Shown here piece after piece: positions 2,779 to 10,156 of a stretch of DNA of 11,426 bases (position 1 is the first letter of the stretch; every line of letters starts with the position of its first letter). The notes below the pieces were generated by a model. It was not told the origin of the DNA. It made no database searches and saw nothing but the letters and a program-made list of their open reading frames with translations. A program made the translations under genes and the position numbers. The DNA comes from a virus (Duplodnaviria > Heunggongvirae > Uroviricota > Caudoviricetes). The stretch lies in IMG/VR virus record IMGVR_UViG_3300029126_000035, one strand, 5' to 3'.

Positions 2779-5535
2779 ATGCGAAACATTGATCTTATCC
2801 GTCAGGTTATCAGTGCGTCTGAAAACAACTGGCCTCATGTGCTGGGCTGCCTGAACATAAATGTCCCTGACTCTCCGCGCCGTCATGCTCCCTGCCCTGC
2901 ATGTGGGGGCAAAGATCGATTCCGGTTCGATGACAACGGGCGCGGTAGCTTCATCTGTAATCAGTGCGGCGCTGGTGATGGGCTGGATTTAATTAAACGC
3001 GTAAATAACTGCGACACAACAGAGGCGGCGCTTCTTGCCGCTGATGTTCTGGGTATTGATTACCGGACAACGGAAACACCAGAAGCCACCAGCCAGAAAC
3101 GGGAACAACTGGAAACCGAGCGCCAGCGACGCGAACAGGAGCGCCTGAAAAGGGCAGAGAAGGACGAACAACAAAGACGGGATACGTTTTCCCGTCAGTT
3201 TGATGACATGCGCAGAAAGGCTGTAAACGGCAAATCTGATTATCTGGTTGCGAAAGGGGTAGGTGATTTTACATTCCCCGTGTTGCCCGATGGATCTCTG
3301 TTGCTGGCGCTGGTGGATAAATCCGGCGCAGTCACAGCAGCACAGACTATTACCTCACATGGTGAAAAAAGACTCCTGACAGGTTCAGCAAAGCGGGGGG
3401 CATATCACGCCATAAACGCACCAGAAACAACACAGAGCATCTTAATCGCAGAAGGTCTGGCAACGGCATTATCTGCCCATTTAATTCGTCCAGAGGCGCT
3501 GACAGTGGCGGCGATTGATGCCGGGAACCTGTTATATGTCGCCCAGGTACTGCGGGATAAATTTCCTTCAGCACAAATCATCATTGCTGCGGATAACGAC
3601 CACAGCGAAGGAAGACAAAACACGGGGAGAATAGCAGCAGAAAAAGCAGCTTTATCTGTTTCTGGATGGGTGGCATTACCCCCGACAGATCACAAAGCAG
3701 ACTGGAATGATTACCACCAAAAACACGGCATTAAATGCGCCACAGAAGCGTTCAATAAGTCAATGTACCAACCACAGGGTAATGGCGTGAAACAGGAGCC
3801 ACAGACCATTGAGGGAAGCGATTTTAAGGTTATGGATACCGACCCACTGAAACCAAGAATAGAAAGCCGCGAGGATGGTATTTATTGGGTATCTCCGAGA
3901 GCTGACAGCCAGAGTGGAGAAATCATCAATAACGAAAGCTGGTTATGTTCTCCGTTAAGCGTTATCGGTACTGGCAGAGACGATAAAGACCAGTATCTCA
4001 TTCTTCGCTGGCTGTCGTTTGGTTCTGAAACGCCGACAACCGCTGCCATTCCACTGGCTGATATTGGTGAACGTGAAGGATGGCGCACACTTAAAGCTGG
4101 TGGGGTAAATGTCACGACCAAAAGCAGCCTCAGAGCAATACTGGCAGACTGGCTACAACGCAGTGGCTCTCGTGAATTGTGGCGTGTTGCTCATGCCACT
4201 GGCTGGCAATGCGGAGCGTACATCATGCCTGATGGGGAAATCATCGGAACACCTGAAAATCCTGTGCTGTTCAGCGGGAGAAGCTCAGCCGCAGCCGGAT
4301 ATACCGTCTCAGGGAGCGCGAAAAGCTGGCGTGATAACGTGGCGCGTCTGGCCTTTGGTAACTATTCAATGATGACCGGGATCGGCGCAGCACTGGCAGC
4401 GCCATTGATTGGGCTGGTGGGCGCTGACGGGTTCGGCATTCATTTCTATGAGCAGTCGAGCGCAGGTAAGACCACCACGGCAAACGTGGCGAGCAGCTTA
4501 TACGGCAACCCTGATTTACTGCGGCTGACGTGGTACGGAACCGCGCTGGGGCTGGCAAATGAGGCCGCCGCCCACAATGACGGACTAATGCCGCTTGATG
4601 AAGTTGGTCAGGGCGCTGATCCTGTCAGCGTTTCACAGTCTGCCTATGCGTTATTTAACGGTGTAGGGAAACTGCAAGGCGCTAAAGATGGTGGAAACCG
4701 GGATCTAAAACGCTGGCGTACAGTGGCAATCAGCACCGGAGAAATGGATTTAGAAACATTTATCGCTACTTCCGGGCGAAAAACCAAAGCCGGGCAACTG
4801 GTGCGACTGCTGAATATTCCGTTGAGTAAAGCAGTACGCTTTCACGATTACCAGAACGGAAAACAGCACGCAGACGCACTGAAAGACGCTTACCAGCATC
4901 ACCACGGCGCGTCCGGGCGTGAGTGGATTAAATGGCTGGCACACCACCAGCAACAGGCTATTAAAACCGTTCGTGATTGCGAAAGCAGATGGAGAAGCCT
5001 GATCCCATCCGATTATGGTGAGCAGGTTCACCGTGTAGCCGCGCGATTTGCCATTCTGGAGGCAGCATTGCTGTTAGGCGAAGTTGTAACAGGCTGGGAT
5101 GCTCAGACATGCCGTGATGCGATACAGCACAGCTATAACGCATGGTTGCGCGAGTTCGGCACAGGTAACAAAGAACATCAGCAGATTATTGAACAAACGG
5201 AGGCATTTCTTAATGCCTATGGGCTTAGCCGTTTTGCACCATTTCCATACAGCCCGGCAGATTTGCCCATCAAAGATTTAGCCGGATACCGTCAGCGTGG
5301 AGAACATGACGAAAGCCCAATGATTTTCTACACATTCCCGGCCACATTTGAAAAGGAGATCGCATGTGGTTTCAACGCAAAACAGTTTGCTGAAGTGTTG
5401 AAAAAAGCCGGGATGCTAACCCCACCAAACAGCGGTCGTGGATACCAAAGAAAATCACCACGTATTCAGGGACGACAAACAAACGTTTATGTACTCAATT
5501 ACCAGCCAGGAGATTATAACTCATCTGAAGAATGA
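2779..5535 (+). CDS. P4 alpha-type DNA primase-helicase (zinc-ribbon + Toprim primase, P-loop helicase, C-terminal domain)
   Basis: CPAC...CNQC zinc-ribbon pattern (nt 2893-2967); Toprim-like IAEG (E225) and AADNDH (D272/D274, nt 3592-3600); Walker A SSAGKTT (K564 at nt 4468-4470); Walker B-like LMPLDE; 918 aa; iterons immediately downstream. Confidence 0.93.
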   Translation: MRNIDLIRQVISASENNWPHVLGCLNINVPDSPRRHAPCPACGGKDRFRFDDNGRGSFICNQCGAGDGLDLIKRVNNCDTTEAALLAADVLGIDYRTTETPEATSQKREQLETERQRREQERLKRAEKDEQQRRDTFSRQFDDMRRKAVNGKSDYLVAKGVGDFTFPVLPDGSLLLALVDKSGAVTAAQTITSHGEKRLLTGSAKRGAYHAINAPETTQSILIAEGLATALSAHLIRPEALTVAAIDAGNLLYVAQVLRDKFPSAQIIIAADNDHSEGRQNTGRIAAEKAALSVSGWVALPPTDHKADWNDYHQKHGIKCATEAFNKSMYQPQGNGVKQEPQTIEGSDFKVMDTDPLKPRIESREDGIYWVSPRADSQSGEIINNESWLCSPLSVIGTGRDDKDQYLILRWLSFGSETPTTAAIPLADIGEREGWRTLKAGGVNVTTKSSLRAILADWLQRSGSRELWRVAHATGWQCGAYIMPDGEIIGTPENPVLFSGRSSAAAGYTVSGSAKSWRDNVARLAFGNYSMMTGIGAALAAPLIGLVGADGFGIHFYEQSSAGKTTTANVASSLYGNPDLLRLTWYGTALGLANEAAAHNDGLMPLDEVGQGADPVSVSQSAYALFNGVGKLQGAKDGGNRDLKRWRTVAISTGEMDLETFIATSGRKTKAGQLVRLLNIPLSKAVRFHDYQNGKQHADALKDAYQHHHGASGREWIKWLAHHQQQAIKTVRDCESRWRSLIPSDYGEQVHRVAARFAILEAALLLGEVVTGWDAQTCRDAIQHSYNAWLREFGTGNKEHQQIIEQTEAFLNAYGLSRFAPFPYSPADLPIKDLAGYRQRGEHDESPMIFYTFPATFEKEIACGFNAKQFAEVLKKAGMLTPPNSGRGYQRKSPRIQGRQTNVYVLNYQPGDYNSSEE

Positions 5536-5560
5536 GCTTCTTCATGTGCGTAGAAAAGGT

Positions 5561-5672
5561 GTTGGTTCAGTTGGTTCAGTTGGTTCAATTTGCAAAGAGT
5601 ATTGTTTTGTAAGGATTTTATTCTTTTTATTGAACCAACACTGAACCAACAACACGGTATTTTGAACCAACA
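5561..5672. repeat. iteron array, probable replication origin: 3 direct GTTGGTTCA copies, AT-rich spacer, 3 inverted TGAACCAAC copies
   Basis: Perfect 9-mers at 5561-5569, 5570-5578, 5579-5587 and inverted copies at 5631-5639, 5642-5650, 5664-5672; 43-bp AT-rich spacer at 5588-5630; starts 25 bp after the primase stop. Confidence 0.75.
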
Positions 5673-5767
5673 CAATGTGACTGAATTGATGAGCACAACA
5701 TCTGGCTGGCATTAGAGAGTGTTTTACGAAATCTGAACACCACATCACTGGTTTCAGTGGGAGATTG

Positions 5768-6226
5768 ATGATGAAGATAATCGCAAAGGCTTTTCATCAT
5801 GTATTTGGCAAAGTATCCGATTTGCCATCTGTAATACCGATGAACAACAGAAGGGAGATGCTGCTTGATGTGGTTGTGTTCCCATACATAGACCTTTCTG
5901 AACCAATGAAAGCAACTCTTTTCAGAAAGTATCTTGGCGACTTTAAACGCCGTTTTACAGGCGTTAACGGGATGGTTGATATCTGCTCCATCAGAGATAT
6001 TGTTGAACTTGCAGGGATTAATTTGTGGGGAGAAGCGGCAGCAGCATACAAATGGCTTGAACGCCTGCACTGTGTTTCATTCAGTGACATGAGTGCTGAT
6101 ATCGCTTTAATGGTTCCTCACAAAATCAATATGGTCTTTGCTGGTGGCAATTACACTTATCCATGGAACCAGGAACAAAGAGAGAACAGGAAAGCTCACG
6201 CCATGAAGAGTAATGCGACTCCATAA
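5768..6226 (+). CDS. hypothetical protein (152 aa), AT-rich gene between origin and cargo operon
   Basis: ATG at 5768/5771 preceded by GGGAG 5759-5763; followed by a rho-independent terminator; the antisense 147-aa ORF is Cys/His/Trp-rich and looks spurious. Confidence 0.6.
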   Translation: MMKIIAKAFHHVFGKVSDLPSVIPMNNRREMLLDVVVFPYIDLSEPMKATLFRKYLGDFKRRFTGVNGMVDICSIRDIVELAGINLWGEAAAAYKWLERLHCVSFSDMSADIALMVPHKINMVFAGGNYTYPWNQEQRENRKAHAMKSNATP

Positions 6227-6279
6227 ATATAGTTTTTAGAGTCCATAAAAAAACTGTCAAAACCTGACATACAGAACGA

Positions 6280-6311
6280 TGCCACCAGCTACTGAACGGT
6301 GGCATTTTTTT
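6280..6311 (+). terminator. rho-independent terminator
   Basis: Stem TGCCACC (6280-6286) / GGTGGCA (6298-6304) followed by a T7 run at 6305-6311. Confidence 0.7.
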
Positions 6312-6367
6312 GTGCTATTTGTTTCATATTTTGCAATCACAATGATGAATGTTGCGTTTTATGAAAC

Positions 6368-6391
6368 TATAATGACTGTTGTTTTATACAG
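6368..6391 (+). promoter_or_regulatory. candidate SOS-regulated promoter: -10 TATAAT followed by LexA-box-like CTGT-N8-ACAG
   Basis: TATAAT at 6368-6373; CTGTTGTTTTATACAG at 6376-6391 matches the LexA consensus CTGT-(AT-rich 8)-ACAG; RBS AAGGGGG at 6396-6402 and ATG at 6407; -35 is weak. Confidence 0.5.
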
Positions 6392-6406
6392 TTCTAAGGG
6401 GGCGTT

Positions 6407-6580
6407 ATGGCTATTTCAGTAAAGCCAGTATTGATAAGTGAGAAGCAAATGGAAGCGATAAAGAAAATTCAGGAGGAGCAGCGTAAAAAATCAGAGGTAG
6501 GAGTTGCGCCAACGATCCACGAAATTGCTCGGGGATTAATGGATAAGGCGCTGGCTTACACTTTAACTGGACGTGGGTAA
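6407..6580 (+). CDS. small protein (57 aa), possible ribbon-helix-helix DNA-binding protein
   Basis: Not in the ORF track (under 60 aa) but a clean ATG-to-TAA frame with RBS; N-terminal strand-like VKPVLIS followed by two helical segments fits an RHH layout; first gene after the SOS-box promoter. Confidence 0.5.
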   Translation: MAISVKPVLISEKQMEAIKKIQEEQRKKSEVGVAPTIHEIARGLMDKALAYTLTGRG

Positions 6581-6584
6581 ATTT

Positions 6585-8051
6585 ATGGCTACGTGGCAAC
6601 AGGGTATTAATTCTGGTGGTTTTCTGGCTGGCATCGGTACGCAAAATGAGAATGCGCCAAAGGCAAGCGACATTAACGCAACGCTTGGTCTGATCCGCGA
6701 AAACAATGAACTGGCTCGCTCAGGTGCAAATAACGTTGCTCTGACAGGTCTTCGTGGTCTGGCTGGAGTTGCTGATATTTATAAGCAGCAGCAACAGCAG
6801 GAGCGTAAAGCGGCATTCCAGAAAGGTTATGCAGATGCTTATGCGTCCGGTGACAGGGAGCAGATGCGTAATCTTATTACAGCATTCCCAGAAGAGTTTG
6901 AGGAAGTCCGTAAAGGGATGAGTTATGTCGATGATGCTCAAAGGGATGATTATGGCAATCTGGCGCTCAAAGCACAGGTAGCCTCATCGCTTGGTCCGGG
7001 CGCATTTGGCAGGTTCATGATAGATAATGAGCAGGAGATGCGTCGTTTAGGTATCCCTCCAGAAACTATTGCTGAAATGCAGGTTAATGACCCGCAGGGC
7101 TTCCAGCATTTCGCAGGTAATCTGGCGCTGTTTTCTCTCGGTCATGAGAAGTATTTCGATATCAAAGATCAAATGGAAGGTCGGGATATTGAGCGTGGCA
7201 AGTTGGCAGAGACAATCCGCAGCAATCAGGCCAGCGAAGCACTTCAGGCGAGAGGGCAGGATATTAGCCGAGCAAATGCGTTAACGTCAGCATATGCACC
7301 AACAGCAGCAATGCAGAATTACAATCAGTACGCGCAAATGTTAAAGGTGGATCCAGAGGGGGCGGCGGCATTTGCGGCAGCGGCTGGAATTAATACAAAC
7401 GCCAAAAAATTAATGAGTGTTAGAGAAAACGATGATGGCACTGTCACAAAATACTACACAGACGGAAGTGAAGAGCAGGGAAAACTAAACCAGCCAATAT
7501 CTGGAGATGGGTTTCGTCCAATAGCTTTGCCAACAGCCCAAAAGATCATGGAAAAGTCGCCAGAAGGGGCTAAAAAAGCTGCTGGATTTGCATACAGGGT
7601 TAGGGATGCTCTTGATTCAATGGATACACTGAAAGACCAGCTTAGCCCACAGCGAGTGGCGGTCATTAATAATGCTTTGGGTAATGGGACGCTGGCTAAC
7701 TTAACGCTCAGCCCAACAGAGCAGCAATACGTTGTTAATGCTAATGACGCAATAATGGCAATACTCCGTCAGGAAACAGGGGCAGCTATCGTACCTGCTG
7801 AAATGTCAAAATATTATCAAATGTATTTCCCTCAGCCTGGCGACTCCACAAAAACCATTGATACCAAGCGCCGGAAGATGGAAAACCAGTTCAATTCGCT
7901 GAAAGCTGCTTCTGGTCGAGCTTATGATGCTTTGCGGGTTATTTCAGCAGTTGACAGAGGAACTTCTTCTTCGTCGCAGACATTGCCGCAATCTGAGCAG
8001 GTATCACAGCCAGCAGCCAGCAGTAACTTTTCTTCACTATGGGGTGATTAA
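6585..8051 (+). CDS. hypothetical large helical protein (488 aa), Ala/Gln/Glu-rich, unknown function
   Basis: ATG 6585 lies 4 nt after the stop of the small gene (alternative GTG at 6573); polyQ run KQQQQQ; no P-loop or catalytic motif I recognise; stop overlaps the next start (TAATG). Confidence 0.8.
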   Translation: MATWQQGINSGGFLAGIGTQNENAPKASDINATLGLIRENNELARSGANNVALTGLRGLAGVADIYKQQQQQERKAAFQKGYADAYASGDREQMRNLITAFPEEFEEVRKGMSYVDDAQRDDYGNLALKAQVASSLGPGAFGRFMIDNEQEMRRLGIPPETIAEMQVNDPQGFQHFAGNLALFSLGHEKYFDIKDQMEGRDIERGKLAETIRSNQASEALQARGQDISRANALTSAYAPTAAMQNYNQYAQMLKVDPEGAAAFAAAAGINTNAKKLMSVRENDDGTVTKYYTDGSEEQGKLNQPISGDGFRPIALPTAQKIMEKSPEGAKKAAGFAYRVRDALDSMDTLKDQLSPQRVAVINNALGNGTLANLTLSPTEQQYVVNANDAIMAILRQETGAAIVPAEMSKYYQMYFPQPGDSTKTIDTKRRKMENQFNSLKAASGRAYDALRVISAVDRGTSSSSQTLPQSEQVSQPAASSNFSSLWGD

Positions 8052-10156
8052 TGGCTAAAGCATGGAAAGATGTTATCGCCTCTCCACAGTATCAGGCGTT
8101 AGCACCAGAACAAAAAGCGCAGGCTCAGGAGCAATACTTCAATGAAGTCGTTGCCCCGCAAGCCGGAGAAAGTGTAGAGCAGGCTAAGCAGGCTTTTTAT
8201 GCTGCCTATCCACTACCATCAACGAATGAAATAGACCGATACCAATCAGCAACTCAAAATATTCAACATACATCATCTGATAATTCTCTTGCGTCAGGGT
8301 ATGCAAAGTTAGCTACTCAGCAAAGAGAGGGGCTTGAGCGTTCAGCAGAACAGGGAGCCAGTCTTGGGGCTGCGATGCGCGATGCTATAACAGGCGAAAG
8401 CCGAATGACTCCAGAGATGGAGAGACTGCAAAATGTCGACCTTGCCCCAGAGTTAACCTCACTCAGCATGGATGCTCTAAAAGCTCGATGGTCTCAACTT
8501 TTCGGCTCTGACGCATCTCAGGAAAAGATTCTTCAGAGCATGGGAGCGAAATTAAGGCAGGATGAGAAGGGTAACACTATCGTTTCCCTGCCATCCGGTG
8601 ATTATGCTCTGAACAAGCCGGGTTTATCGCCGCAAGACGTGGCATCGTTTCTGGCTAATGCGCTGGCGTTTACACCAGCGGGCAGGGCCGGAACGGTGCT
8701 GGGGGCCATAGGGAAATCAGCAGCTACAGATTTAGCACTACAGGGAGCCACCAGCCTTGCTGGTGGAGAAGATATTGATCCGTTACAAACGGTAATTTCT
8801 GCTGGCATTGGCGGCATTGGTAAGGGGCTGGAGAATACAGCGAGTGCGGTTTCGAGGGCTGTTCGTGGTGATATGGCACCGGAAGCGAAAGCTGCTGTTG
8901 ATTTTGCATCGGAAAGAAACCTGCCGTTAATGACCAGTGACGTACTGAAAGATAAAAACACTGTGCAGAGTCTGGCCCAGAAAACAGGCGAAAAAATCCC
9001 TTTTTTTGGAACGGGTACGAACAGGTTGAATCAACAACAGGCACGGGAAAATCTGGTCAGAACATATAACGATGGTCTGGGAGGCATTTCAGATAAACAG
9101 CTTTATGAATCTGCGACTAAAGGGCAGCAAAAATTCATTGAGGCCGCAGGAAAGCGATATAACCGCATAATTGACGCTATGGGGGATACCCCTGTCGATC
9201 TCTCAAACACGGTAAAAGCTATCGACAATCAGATTGCCGTGTTAAGCCGCCCGGGCAAATCTCAGGATAGAGCCGCGGTAAAAGTCTTGCAGCAATTTAA
9301 AGACGATATCACCAGCGGACCAAATGACCTGCGTCTGGCGAGAGAAAACAGAACTGACCTTCGAAAGCGGTTCATGAATTCAAACGAGACAGTTGATAAA
9401 GACACGCTCCAGAAAGCCAGCGATATTGTCTACAAGGCATATACGCTGGATATGAGAAGGGCAGTAGCCCAGAAACTGGGTTCAGAAGAAGCAGCCAATA
9501 TGGCAAGGGTCGATCGCTCATGGTCTAAATTCAATGACATGATGGGAAGAACGCGCGTTCAGAAGGCAATAGCCAGCGGCAAGGCTACGCCTGAGGATGT
9601 AACAAAACTCGTTTTTAGCCAAAGCTCATCAGAACGTTCTCAGCTTTACAGGCTTCTGGATGACAACGGCAGGCAGAACGCACGGGCAGCCATAATACAG
9701 AATGCTGTAGATAAGGCGACTGATTCGGCGGGGAATATCAGCGTTGAGAAGTTTATTAACACGCTACACCGGAACAGAAAGCAATCCGCAACGTTCTTTA
9801 AGGGCGTGCACGGAAAGGAACTGGACGGCATTATTAAATACCTCAACGATACCAGACAGGCGGCAAAGGTTGACGGTCAGAAATTAAACAGCCAGAAACT
9901 TTATGGCCTGCTGGTTGGTGGAGGCGCTATAAATGCGGCAGTTCTGGCGGGGATGCTGAAAACGGCTGCGTTTGTTGTTCCTGCTGCAGGTGCCGTAGGC
10001 GGAGCAGCGAAGGCATACGAAAGCCCTGTTATACGAAATGCCTTGTTACGTCTGGCAAATACGCCAAAAGGTAGCACAGCATATGACAGAGCGATCAGTA
10101 CGGTCACACAATCACTGACCACAGCAGCACAAGCATCGCAAAAGGAAGCTCAATAA
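8051..10156 (+). CDS. hypothetical large protein (701 aa) with C-terminal Gly/Ala-rich hydrophobic hairpin, unknown function
   Basis: ATG 8051 overlaps upstream stop; Ala/Gln/Lys-rich helical composition; hydrophobic segment LYGLLVGGGAINAAVLAGMLKTAAFVVPAAGAVGGAA at residues ~616-656 (nt 9896-10018); no canonical Walker A. Confidence 0.85.
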   Translation: MAKAWKDVIASPQYQALAPEQKAQAQEQYFNEVVAPQAGESVEQAKQAFYAAYPLPSTNEIDRYQSATQNIQHTSSDNSLASGYAKLATQQREGLERSAEQGASLGAAMRDAITGESRMTPEMERLQNVDLAPELTSLSMDALKARWSQLFGSDASQEKILQSMGAKLRQDEKGNTIVSLPSGDYALNKPGLSPQDVASFLANALAFTPAGRAGTVLGAIGKSAATDLALQGATSLAGGEDIDPLQTVISAGIGGIGKGLENTASAVSRAVRGDMAPEAKAAVDFASERNLPLMTSDVLKDKNTVQSLAQKTGEKIPFFGTGTNRLNQQQARENLVRTYNDGLGGISDKQLYESATKGQQKFIEAAGKRYNRIIDAMGDTPVDLSNTVKAIDNQIAVLSRPGKSQDRAAVKVLQQFKDDITSGPNDLRLARENRTDLRKRFMNSNETVDKDTLQKASDIVYKAYTLDMRRAVAQKLGSEEAANMARVDRSWSKFNDMMGRTRVQKAIASGKATPEDVTKLVFSQSSSERSQLYRLLDDNGRQNARAAIIQNAVDKATDSAGNISVEKFINTLHRNRKQSATFFKGVHGKELDGIIKYLNDTRQAAKVDGQKLNSQKLYGLLVGGGAINAAVLAGMLKTAAFVVPAAGAVGGAAKAYESPVIRNALLRLANTPKGSTAYDRAISTVTQSLTTAAQASQKEAQ

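Follow-up and report, generated by a model that had tools for sequence, protein, structure and literature searches.

The stretch of DNA analysed here, 11,426 nucleotides of a Caudoviricetes record (IMG/VR IMGVR_UViG_3300029126_000035; the whole stretch is hereafter called the window), carries a short operon for P22-type DNA ejection proteins whose promoter is overlapped by a 20-bp LexA-like box at positions 6374–6393. Judged from the sequence and its relatives, this box is likely to be an operator for functional repression by the host LexA protein, lying across the start of a sigma-70 promoter. It fits the E. coli LexA motif, overlaps the promoter, and changes among related loci in a pattern that follows the information in the LexA motif. 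The probable arrangement is an SOS-gated operon of virion genes on a satellite-like island.

Sequence fit and position of the LexA-like box

The initial annotation of the window pointed to a CTGT-N8-ACAG palindrome with an AT-rich core at 6376–6391, located just past a TATAAT hexamer and before the ribosome-binding site, and direct reading of the sequence bears out both the pattern and its location. The palindrome (CTGTTGTTTTATACAG) forms the core of the 20-mer GACTGTTGTTTTATACAGTT at 6374–6393; TATAAT occupies 6368–6373, the Shine-Dalgarno sequence AGGGGG occupies 6397–6402, and the ATG begins at 6407, all on the plus strand. Two bases (GA) separate the conserved −10 hexamer from the core, which begins at the third base past TATAAT. 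With a start site predicted near 6380–6381, the 20-mer would extend from about −6 to +14. The core ends 15 nt before the ATG, as it does in umuD, dinP and yebG, and the strongly LexA-controlled genes of Salmonella have boxes located 15–21 bp from the ATG and overlapping the start site.

By itself the bare CTGT-N8-ACAG pattern is not significant: one match was present in the window against 0.14 expected, and 27 of 200 shuffled sequences contained at least one. Full matrix scoring of 20-mers was therefore used, a check that had also been suggested with the initial annotation. A position matrix was built in this study from the 18 E. coli LexA boxes tabulated in PMC3009722, and 20-mers were scored by the heterology index (HI) using the Berg-von Hippel/Lewis formula. 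The 20-mer at 6374–6393, read on the minus strand (AACTGTATAAAACAACAGTC), has an HI of 6.24 and falls within the range of validated sites (0.27–9.29 for the 18 known sites, with a leave-one-out maximum of 12.8). The exact p-value of this score is 8.4e-8 per 20-mer per strand, which corresponds to an expectation of 0.0019 sites for the window and of about 0.8 for 5 Mb, and the site is the top LexA-like site of the window. It shares 17 of 20 bases with the polB box and 16 of 20 with each of the boxes of yebG, umuD, sbmC, dinD and istR2. As a positive control, the same scan recovered the box of the neighbouring host gene dinD beside a sister island (locus L003) with an HI of 2.65. LexA-dependent genes of Salmonella are found at HI values of about 6.3 and the low-HI mode of E. 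coli K-12 lies at about 7.3, both obtained with other matrices, so that these comparisons are approximate.

The second-best LexA-like site of the window, at 7580–7599 on the minus strand (CCCTGTATGCAAATCCAGCA; HI 8.0, with 0.012 expected in the window), was rejected as a functional LexA site. It is located within the gp20-like gene of the operon, where AGFAYR is encoded, and its changes among relatives follow those of the coding sequence; the related island of E. coli EcPF7 described below does not have it.

Conservation of the box among related loci

Relatives of the first gene of the operon, a small gene for a 57-aa protein, were collected from species-representative genomes (10 loci, from Escherichia, Leclercia, Chimaeribacter, Lonsdalea, Rahnella, Serratia, Pantoea and Pectobacterium), from metagenomes (79 loci) and from IMG/VR (48 loci). 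The fetched loci together with the window made up 141 sequences, which yielded 135 upstream regions and 80 distinct promoters; six further loci obtained from exact-protein look-ups were analysed apart from this set. The layout was the same everywhere and consisted of a terminator, two 15-bp palindromes, TATAAT, two bases, a CTGTAT-type element, a Shine-Dalgarno sequence and the small gene.

Among the 57 loci with P22-type cargo behind the small gene, the canonical CTGT-N8-ACAG was present in 56 and CTG-N9-CAG in one (L107), and none had neither form. The 63 loci with other cargo comprised three with the canonical box (L007, L137 and L013, with siphovirus tape-measure cargo), 47 with CTG-N9-CAG and 13 with neither. 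Four variants of the box accompany P22 cargo: CTGT-TGTTTTAT-ACAG in the E. coli clade (HI 5.1–6.2), CTGT-ATCGTTAT-ACAG in clades B and C (HI 6.9–8.6), CTGT-ATCGTTAT-CCAG in the lineage of P0018 (HI 7.35) and CTGT-GTCTATAT-ACAG in the Serratia lineage (HI 4.19). The differences among these variants are confined to positions that are variable in real LexA boxes. In the canonical boxes positions 3–6 (CTGT) and 16–18 (CAG) are fixed and positions 1–2, 7–15 and 19–20 vary, with position 15 alternating between A and C, as is often the case in real boxes. Clades A and B/C, with 26 distinct promoters between them, show no variation in the core.

The P22-cargo boxes had been assembled without selection by pattern, and in them the conservation of each position correlated with the information of the LexA matrix (Spearman rho 0.70, p 5e-4); rho was 0.74–0.89 once the three pattern-selected tape-measure loci were included. 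In clade B/C, 2 of the 20 box columns were variable as compared to 43 of 100 overall (hypergeometric P 6e-4), and in clade A the corresponding numbers were 1 of 20 and 21 of 100 (P 0.04). The better half-site lies on the right in the window (TATACAG) and on the left in most other lineages (CTGTATA), and this switch of side between lineages suggests that the palindrome is under constraint and that a single sequence has not simply been inherited. In the Leclercia islands, which group with the window by their small protein and carry podovirus internal virion proteins as cargo, the box has decayed to TTGT-ATCGATAT-AGAG. The pattern of change supports a LexA-like constraint on the P22-cargo boxes, and the conservation of CTGT and CAG in these boxes, next to the in silico score and the position, lends support to the operator function proposed in the initial annotation.

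Several observations weigh against LexA control of the operon. An element of the CTGTATAAATATCAG type (CTG-N9-CAG) with an HI of 12.7–17 stands at the box position in many loci (e.g., L109 5965, L126 5961, L008 5966 and L006 5962, with about 45 further loci); its spacer is one base short, and this spacing should not be compatible with LexA binding. The N9 element varies less than its flanks (variable columns: 7 of 20 versus 69 of 100), and since it is fairly conserved without LexA spacing, a constraint other than LexA may act on this stretch. Locus L107 is an exception in that it combines P22 cargo with the N9 form, and the association between the canonical box and P22 cargo is confounded by shared ancestry. 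The HI values derive from our own 18-site matrix and not from a published one, and the box sequences matched no publication in a full-text literature search. The promoter also lacks a −35 element and carries the two palindromes (O1 and O2, see below), and removal of LexA may be insufficient for expression.

The invariance of CTG and CAG in the N9 set is a by-product of how its sequences were selected, and about 15% of the loci in the largest N9 cluster have lost CTG or CAG. Within the element, CAG belongs to a Shine-Dalgarno region (CAGGAGG) and CTGTAT overlies the predicted start site, two overlaps that may explain part of the constraint. The possibility that the N9 element hides a LexA site was examined and rejected, as neither an alternative register nor another box within 75 nt was found. 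One inserted base restores an HI of 6.5–8.4 in three of the four N9 forms tested. Most simply read, LexA-competent and LexA-incompetent versions of the element differ by an indel of one base in the A/T-rich spacer, and LexA control has been kept mainly where the cargo is P22-type.

Putative additional operators, proposed mechanism and alternative explanations

The two palindromes upstream of the −10 hexamer are O1 (TTTCATATTTTGCAA, 6322–6336), an imperfect palindrome of the form TTTCA-N5-TGCAA centred near −51, and O2 (TTGCGTTTTATGAAA, 6352–6366), of the form TTGCG-N5-TGAAA and centred near −21. Across lineages both follow the form TT(T/G)C(A/G)-N5-(T/C)G(C/A)AA and are located 30 bp apart, start to start, in every lineage. 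In each locus examined the pattern is confined to this promoter, save for three isolated matches in L012. No −35 hexamer with at least 4 of 6 matches at a spacing of 16–18 bp was found by promoter scan and direct reading; O2, which adjoins the −10 and spans about −28 to −14, occupies the site of the missing −35. A consensus promoter scan missed this promoter, which lacks a −35, and the conservation of the −10 hexamer was relied on instead (invariant in clades A and B/C and nearly so in the N9 lineages, pi 0–0.026). No other element in the region is as well conserved as this hexamer. O1 and O2 probably point to a second regulator, with LexA not the sole control. The initial annotation had also listed GTTTTAT direct repeats flanking the −10. 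The second copy is located at 6381–6387 as given, and the first is at 6356–6362 instead of 6354–6360; this copy falls within the spacer of O2, most close relatives have GATTTGT in its place, and the repeat was dismissed as a coincidence.

Neither O1 and O2 nor the VKPVL segment at the N-terminus of the small protein varies among lineages, the segment being identical in lineages with N9 spacing and in those with the N10 spacing of the canonical box (CTG-N10-CAG), and for this reason O1/O2, and not the LexA-like box, are the putative operators of an island regulator. Their ligand is possibly the 57-aa product itself. An AlphaFold monomer model of this protein consists of a coil (residues 1–11) and two helices (12–28 and 37–53; pLDDT 74), a layout that, as a guess from the model, could be compatible with a ribbon-helix-helix DNA-binding fold. 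The protein had no match in Pfam, PHROGs or PADLOC, in a hidden Markov model (HMM) profile search of the PDB, in Foldseek, or in hhalign comparisons with Arc and CopG. About 20–40 nt upstream of O1, a conserved GATC-rich motif (TTCGATCGAAACGATCAAAT or AACGATCGAA) is present in many lineages, among them L006, L010, L011, L086 and L089 as well as the N9 lineages, but is missing from the window; a link to Dam/SeqA or to replication is conceivable.

If the box is a LexA operator, a LexA dimer bound to it would block RNA polymerase in the undamaged cell, and RecA-stimulated self-cleavage of LexA upon DNA damage would free the promoter. The operon would then be transcribed to yield the 57-aa protein and the gp20-like and gp16-like proteins, to which sister islands would add the products of gp14-like and gp7-like genes. 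The same SOS signal would induce resident P22-like prophages. The ejection proteins of P22 are incorporated at the procapsid stage, and those of the island would be made as helper procapsids assemble and could be incorporated into the helper virions. A second layer of control is likely, in which an island protein, possibly the 57-aa product, would be bound to O1 and O2 over the −35 region.

The palindrome could alternatively be the operator of a regulator encoded by the island or a helper phage, for example the 57-aa protein, and its likeness to a LexA box would then be incidental. A small, possibly DNA-binding protein is encoded directly downstream, and CTG-N9-CAG, which is unfit for LexA, is retained at the same place in most other-cargo lineages. 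However, the bases fixed in the P22-cargo lineages are the LexA contact bases, with A or C at position 15 as in real SOS boxes, and the change in spacing is ill-suited to one fixed dimeric binder, given a VKPVL segment that stays the same in N9 and N10 lineages. With O1 and O2, constant in all lineages, being better operator candidates for the 57-aa protein, and with this protein having no detectable relation to known DNA-binding families, we consider such an operator unlikely. A limited role of LexA is likewise a minority possibility: LexA would bind, but the promoter would mainly be silenced through O1 and O2, or would need a helper or island activator, so that SOS induction alone would result in little or no expression and LexA would act as a minor second lock. 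This is in line with the lack of a usable −35, with the location of O2 and O1 in an exact 30-bp register in all lineages, and with the many lineages that do without a canonical LexA box. On the other hand, purifying selection maintains the box in lineages of both Escherichia and Serratia, and the box decays with a change of cargo, which argues that LexA control matters for fitness.

It is very improbable that the box is a chance or decaying LexA-like sequence, or a leader RNA hairpin, with no regulatory role. The bare pattern is not rare, as seen from the shuffled sequences, and the region is AT-rich, but the full matrix predicts 0.002 such sites per window, the core is fixed in 26 of 26 distinct promoters of clades A and B/C, and two more P22-cargo lineages keep the canonical box with other spacers. 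The RNA hairpin was rejected, as its folding energy (dG −7.3 kcal/mol, z −0.71) is no better than that of shuffled sequence and no Rfam match was found; its left arm is also probably located upstream of the start site.

The island, its cargo and related systems

An intrinsic terminator precedes the operon on the plus strand (6280–6311; stem TGCCACC/GGTGGCA followed by seven T; detected by the terminator scan and as inverted repeat I2, and kept in relatives), and owing to this rho-independent terminator the downstream operon is a separate transcription unit. Its three genes, all on the plus strand and with tight or overlapping junctions, are the small gene (6407–6580), a homolog of the P22 ejection protein gp20 (6585–8051; PF16928 Inj_translocase, E 1.5e-84; phrog_917; start as in RefSeq for EcPF7) and a homolog of the P22 DNA transfer (ejection) protein gp16 (8051–10156; phrog_770, E 2.4e-155), the start of which overlaps the preceding stop. 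The gp20 and gp16 homologs are adjacent and keep the P22 order. Homologs of gp7 and gp14 were not found within the window; sister islands have the full P22 set in P22 order, i.e., DUF2824 (gp14-like), P22_gp7, gp20 and gp16. The gp16-like protein has 66% identity to its closest phage relatives, the P22-like podoviruses N7 and HZ41, and 33% to Sf6, and its relatives bear the SLT plus Phage_P22_gp16 families. The family of the small protein was found in Enterobacterales only and the protein was absent from 50,697 phage records, and promoter and small gene together are present in 499 of 5426 complete E. coli genomes (~9%).

Positions 5600–7000 of the window are 100% identical to E. coli EcPF7 (NZ_CP054232.1; locus L001), in which the element is an island of ~17 kb inserted between yicC and yicG. 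The genes of this island include a tyrosine integrase, an AlpA-family regulator (PF05930), an AntA antirepressor, an ash pseudogene, an Icd-like protein, a TOPRIM/DUF927 primase and PerC, and no capsid, portal or terminase genes were found among the gene content examined. Going by its genes, the island fits a phage satellite of the phage-inducible chromosomal island (PICI) or P4-like kind, in agreement with the description of the operon in the initial annotation as cargo of a satellite. Beyond ~7000 the ejection genes of the window and of EcPF7 diverge, with different gene lengths and with the 7580 site missing in EcPF7, which suggests mosaic exchange within the cargo. The region 5250–6750 of the window, comprising the end of the primase gene, a 153-aa open reading frame (ORF; 5765–6226) and the promoter module, is low in GC (0.40–0.43 versus ~0.50 elsewhere). 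The 153-aa ORF had no family match in Pfam, PHROGs or PADLOC. Between its stop and the terminator lies the sequence CTGTCAAAACCTGACATACAG (6254–6274), which includes the inverted repeat TGTCA-N5-TGACA and is kept in L002–L004.

Within the island family a single regulatory cassette is followed by varied DNA-delivery cargo behind the small gene (L002, L005, L006, L007, L011, L012, L013, L109, L113, L126 and L137). Besides P22 ejection proteins, the cargo comprises siphovirus tape-measure proteins (L013, L007, L006, L011 and L137), a tape-measure protein of myovirus type together with a baseplate hub (L126), transglycosylase proteins resembling tape measures (L109 and L113) and podovirus internal virion proteins (L005 and L012). 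In every case examined these proteins exit the virion and conduct the DNA into the cell. Full-text literature searches for satellites carrying ejection or tape-measure proteins found no description, although absence is not thereby proven.

Other LexA-like sites were also observed in the family. Strong tandem LexA boxes (HI 2.4–3.5 and 5.7–8.1, 22 bp apart) are located ~60 nt upstream of a two-gene cassette in L140 (4038–4079), L058 (262–303), L067 (267–308) and L114; the cassette corresponds to PDC-M18 A and B, a candidate defence system of PADLOC, and occupies the slot between SSB/primase and the small-gene module. At 11565–11606 of L011, ~5.5 kb downstream of the module, a very strong LexA box (TGCTGTATATTTAAACAGTA; HI 2.9) stands next to a weaker one (HI 10.6). 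A weak LexA-like sequence (TACTGTATGGGCAACCACTA; HI 10.6) with only the left half perfect is present 45 nt upstream of the AlpA-family gene in EcPF7 (L001 7112–7131, outside the window) and also in L003 (1095); ~0.3 such sites are expected by chance in the L001 locus.

The candidate operator resembles the chromosomal SOS boxes of E. coli (polB/dinA, yebG and umuDC) in its 20-bp motif, its overlap with the start and its distance of ~15 nt from the ATG, and differs from them in belonging to a mobile island, found in 9% of E. coli genomes, and to genes that do not function in DNA repair. LexA-repressed promoters of mobile elements include those of coliphage 186 tum, the Gifsy antirepressors and the colicin operons, with the colicin boxes located just past the −10. 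As would be the case here, these elements use host LexA directly to sense DNA damage, in place of a self-encoded cleavable repressor, but their promoters drive antirepressors or toxins, whereas the operon of the island encodes structural proteins ejected from virions. Similarity to the P22 ejection proteins gp7, gp20 and gp16 and to the P22 assembly protein gp14 is seen in the PF16928 and phrog_770 matches and in the P22 gene order of the sister islands, with identities to known phages of just 33–66%. In P22 the ejection genes lie inside the late operon without a promoter of their own, whereas here they form a stand-alone unit with a predicted LexA box on a non-phage island.

Gram-negative PICIs (EcCICFT073 type; PMC6739421) and P4-like satellites share with the island an integrase, an AlpA-family regulator, a primase, a size of ~17 kb and the lack of capsid and terminase genes. 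In contrast to them, the island has a dedicated promoter module followed by genes for DNA-delivery proteins that match a phage type, and no sid/psu/delta or rpp was identified on it. In Staphylococcus aureus pathogenicity islands (SaPIs), operon I, the packaging module, is LexA-controlled (Ubeda et al., 2007, as cited in PMC5052747). The likeness would consist in a satellite operon of virion-related genes placed under the host SOS repressor and timed with the SOS induction of the helper prophage. The present case differs in its Gram-negative host, in having CTGT-N8-ACAG and not the Firmicutes motif, in the additional O1 and O2, and in its P22-type ejection genes, which have no homology to terS, cpmA/B or pti; only the regulatory logic would be shared.

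For the family as a whole we tentatively propose, with more doubt than conviction, that widespread AlpA/primase satellites of Enterobacterales carry helper-matched DNA-delivery proteins, that the lineages parasitising P22-like phages are wired to LexA, and that the proteins are loaded into hijacked capsids. In every lineage the DNA-delivery genes would follow one cassette of terminator, two operators, −10 and small gene, and a single-base change of the spacer would toggle LexA control between lineages. Satellite ejection proteins made at prophage induction might replace those of the helper, for instance to pass superinfection exclusion in recipients or to spoil helper virions.

If LexA gates the operon, it would represent a Gram-negative counterpart of SaPI operon I control, none having been described in the literature searched, and it would provide a simple account of how virion components come to be produced at the time when an SOS-inducible helper is induced. 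Canonical boxes and those one base shorter would together amount to a natural on/off experiment. The carriage of phage-injected, envelope-crossing proteins appears to be an undescribed habit of this common island family, and such cargo would bear on satellite host range, on how superinfection exclusion is evaded and on interference with helper phages.
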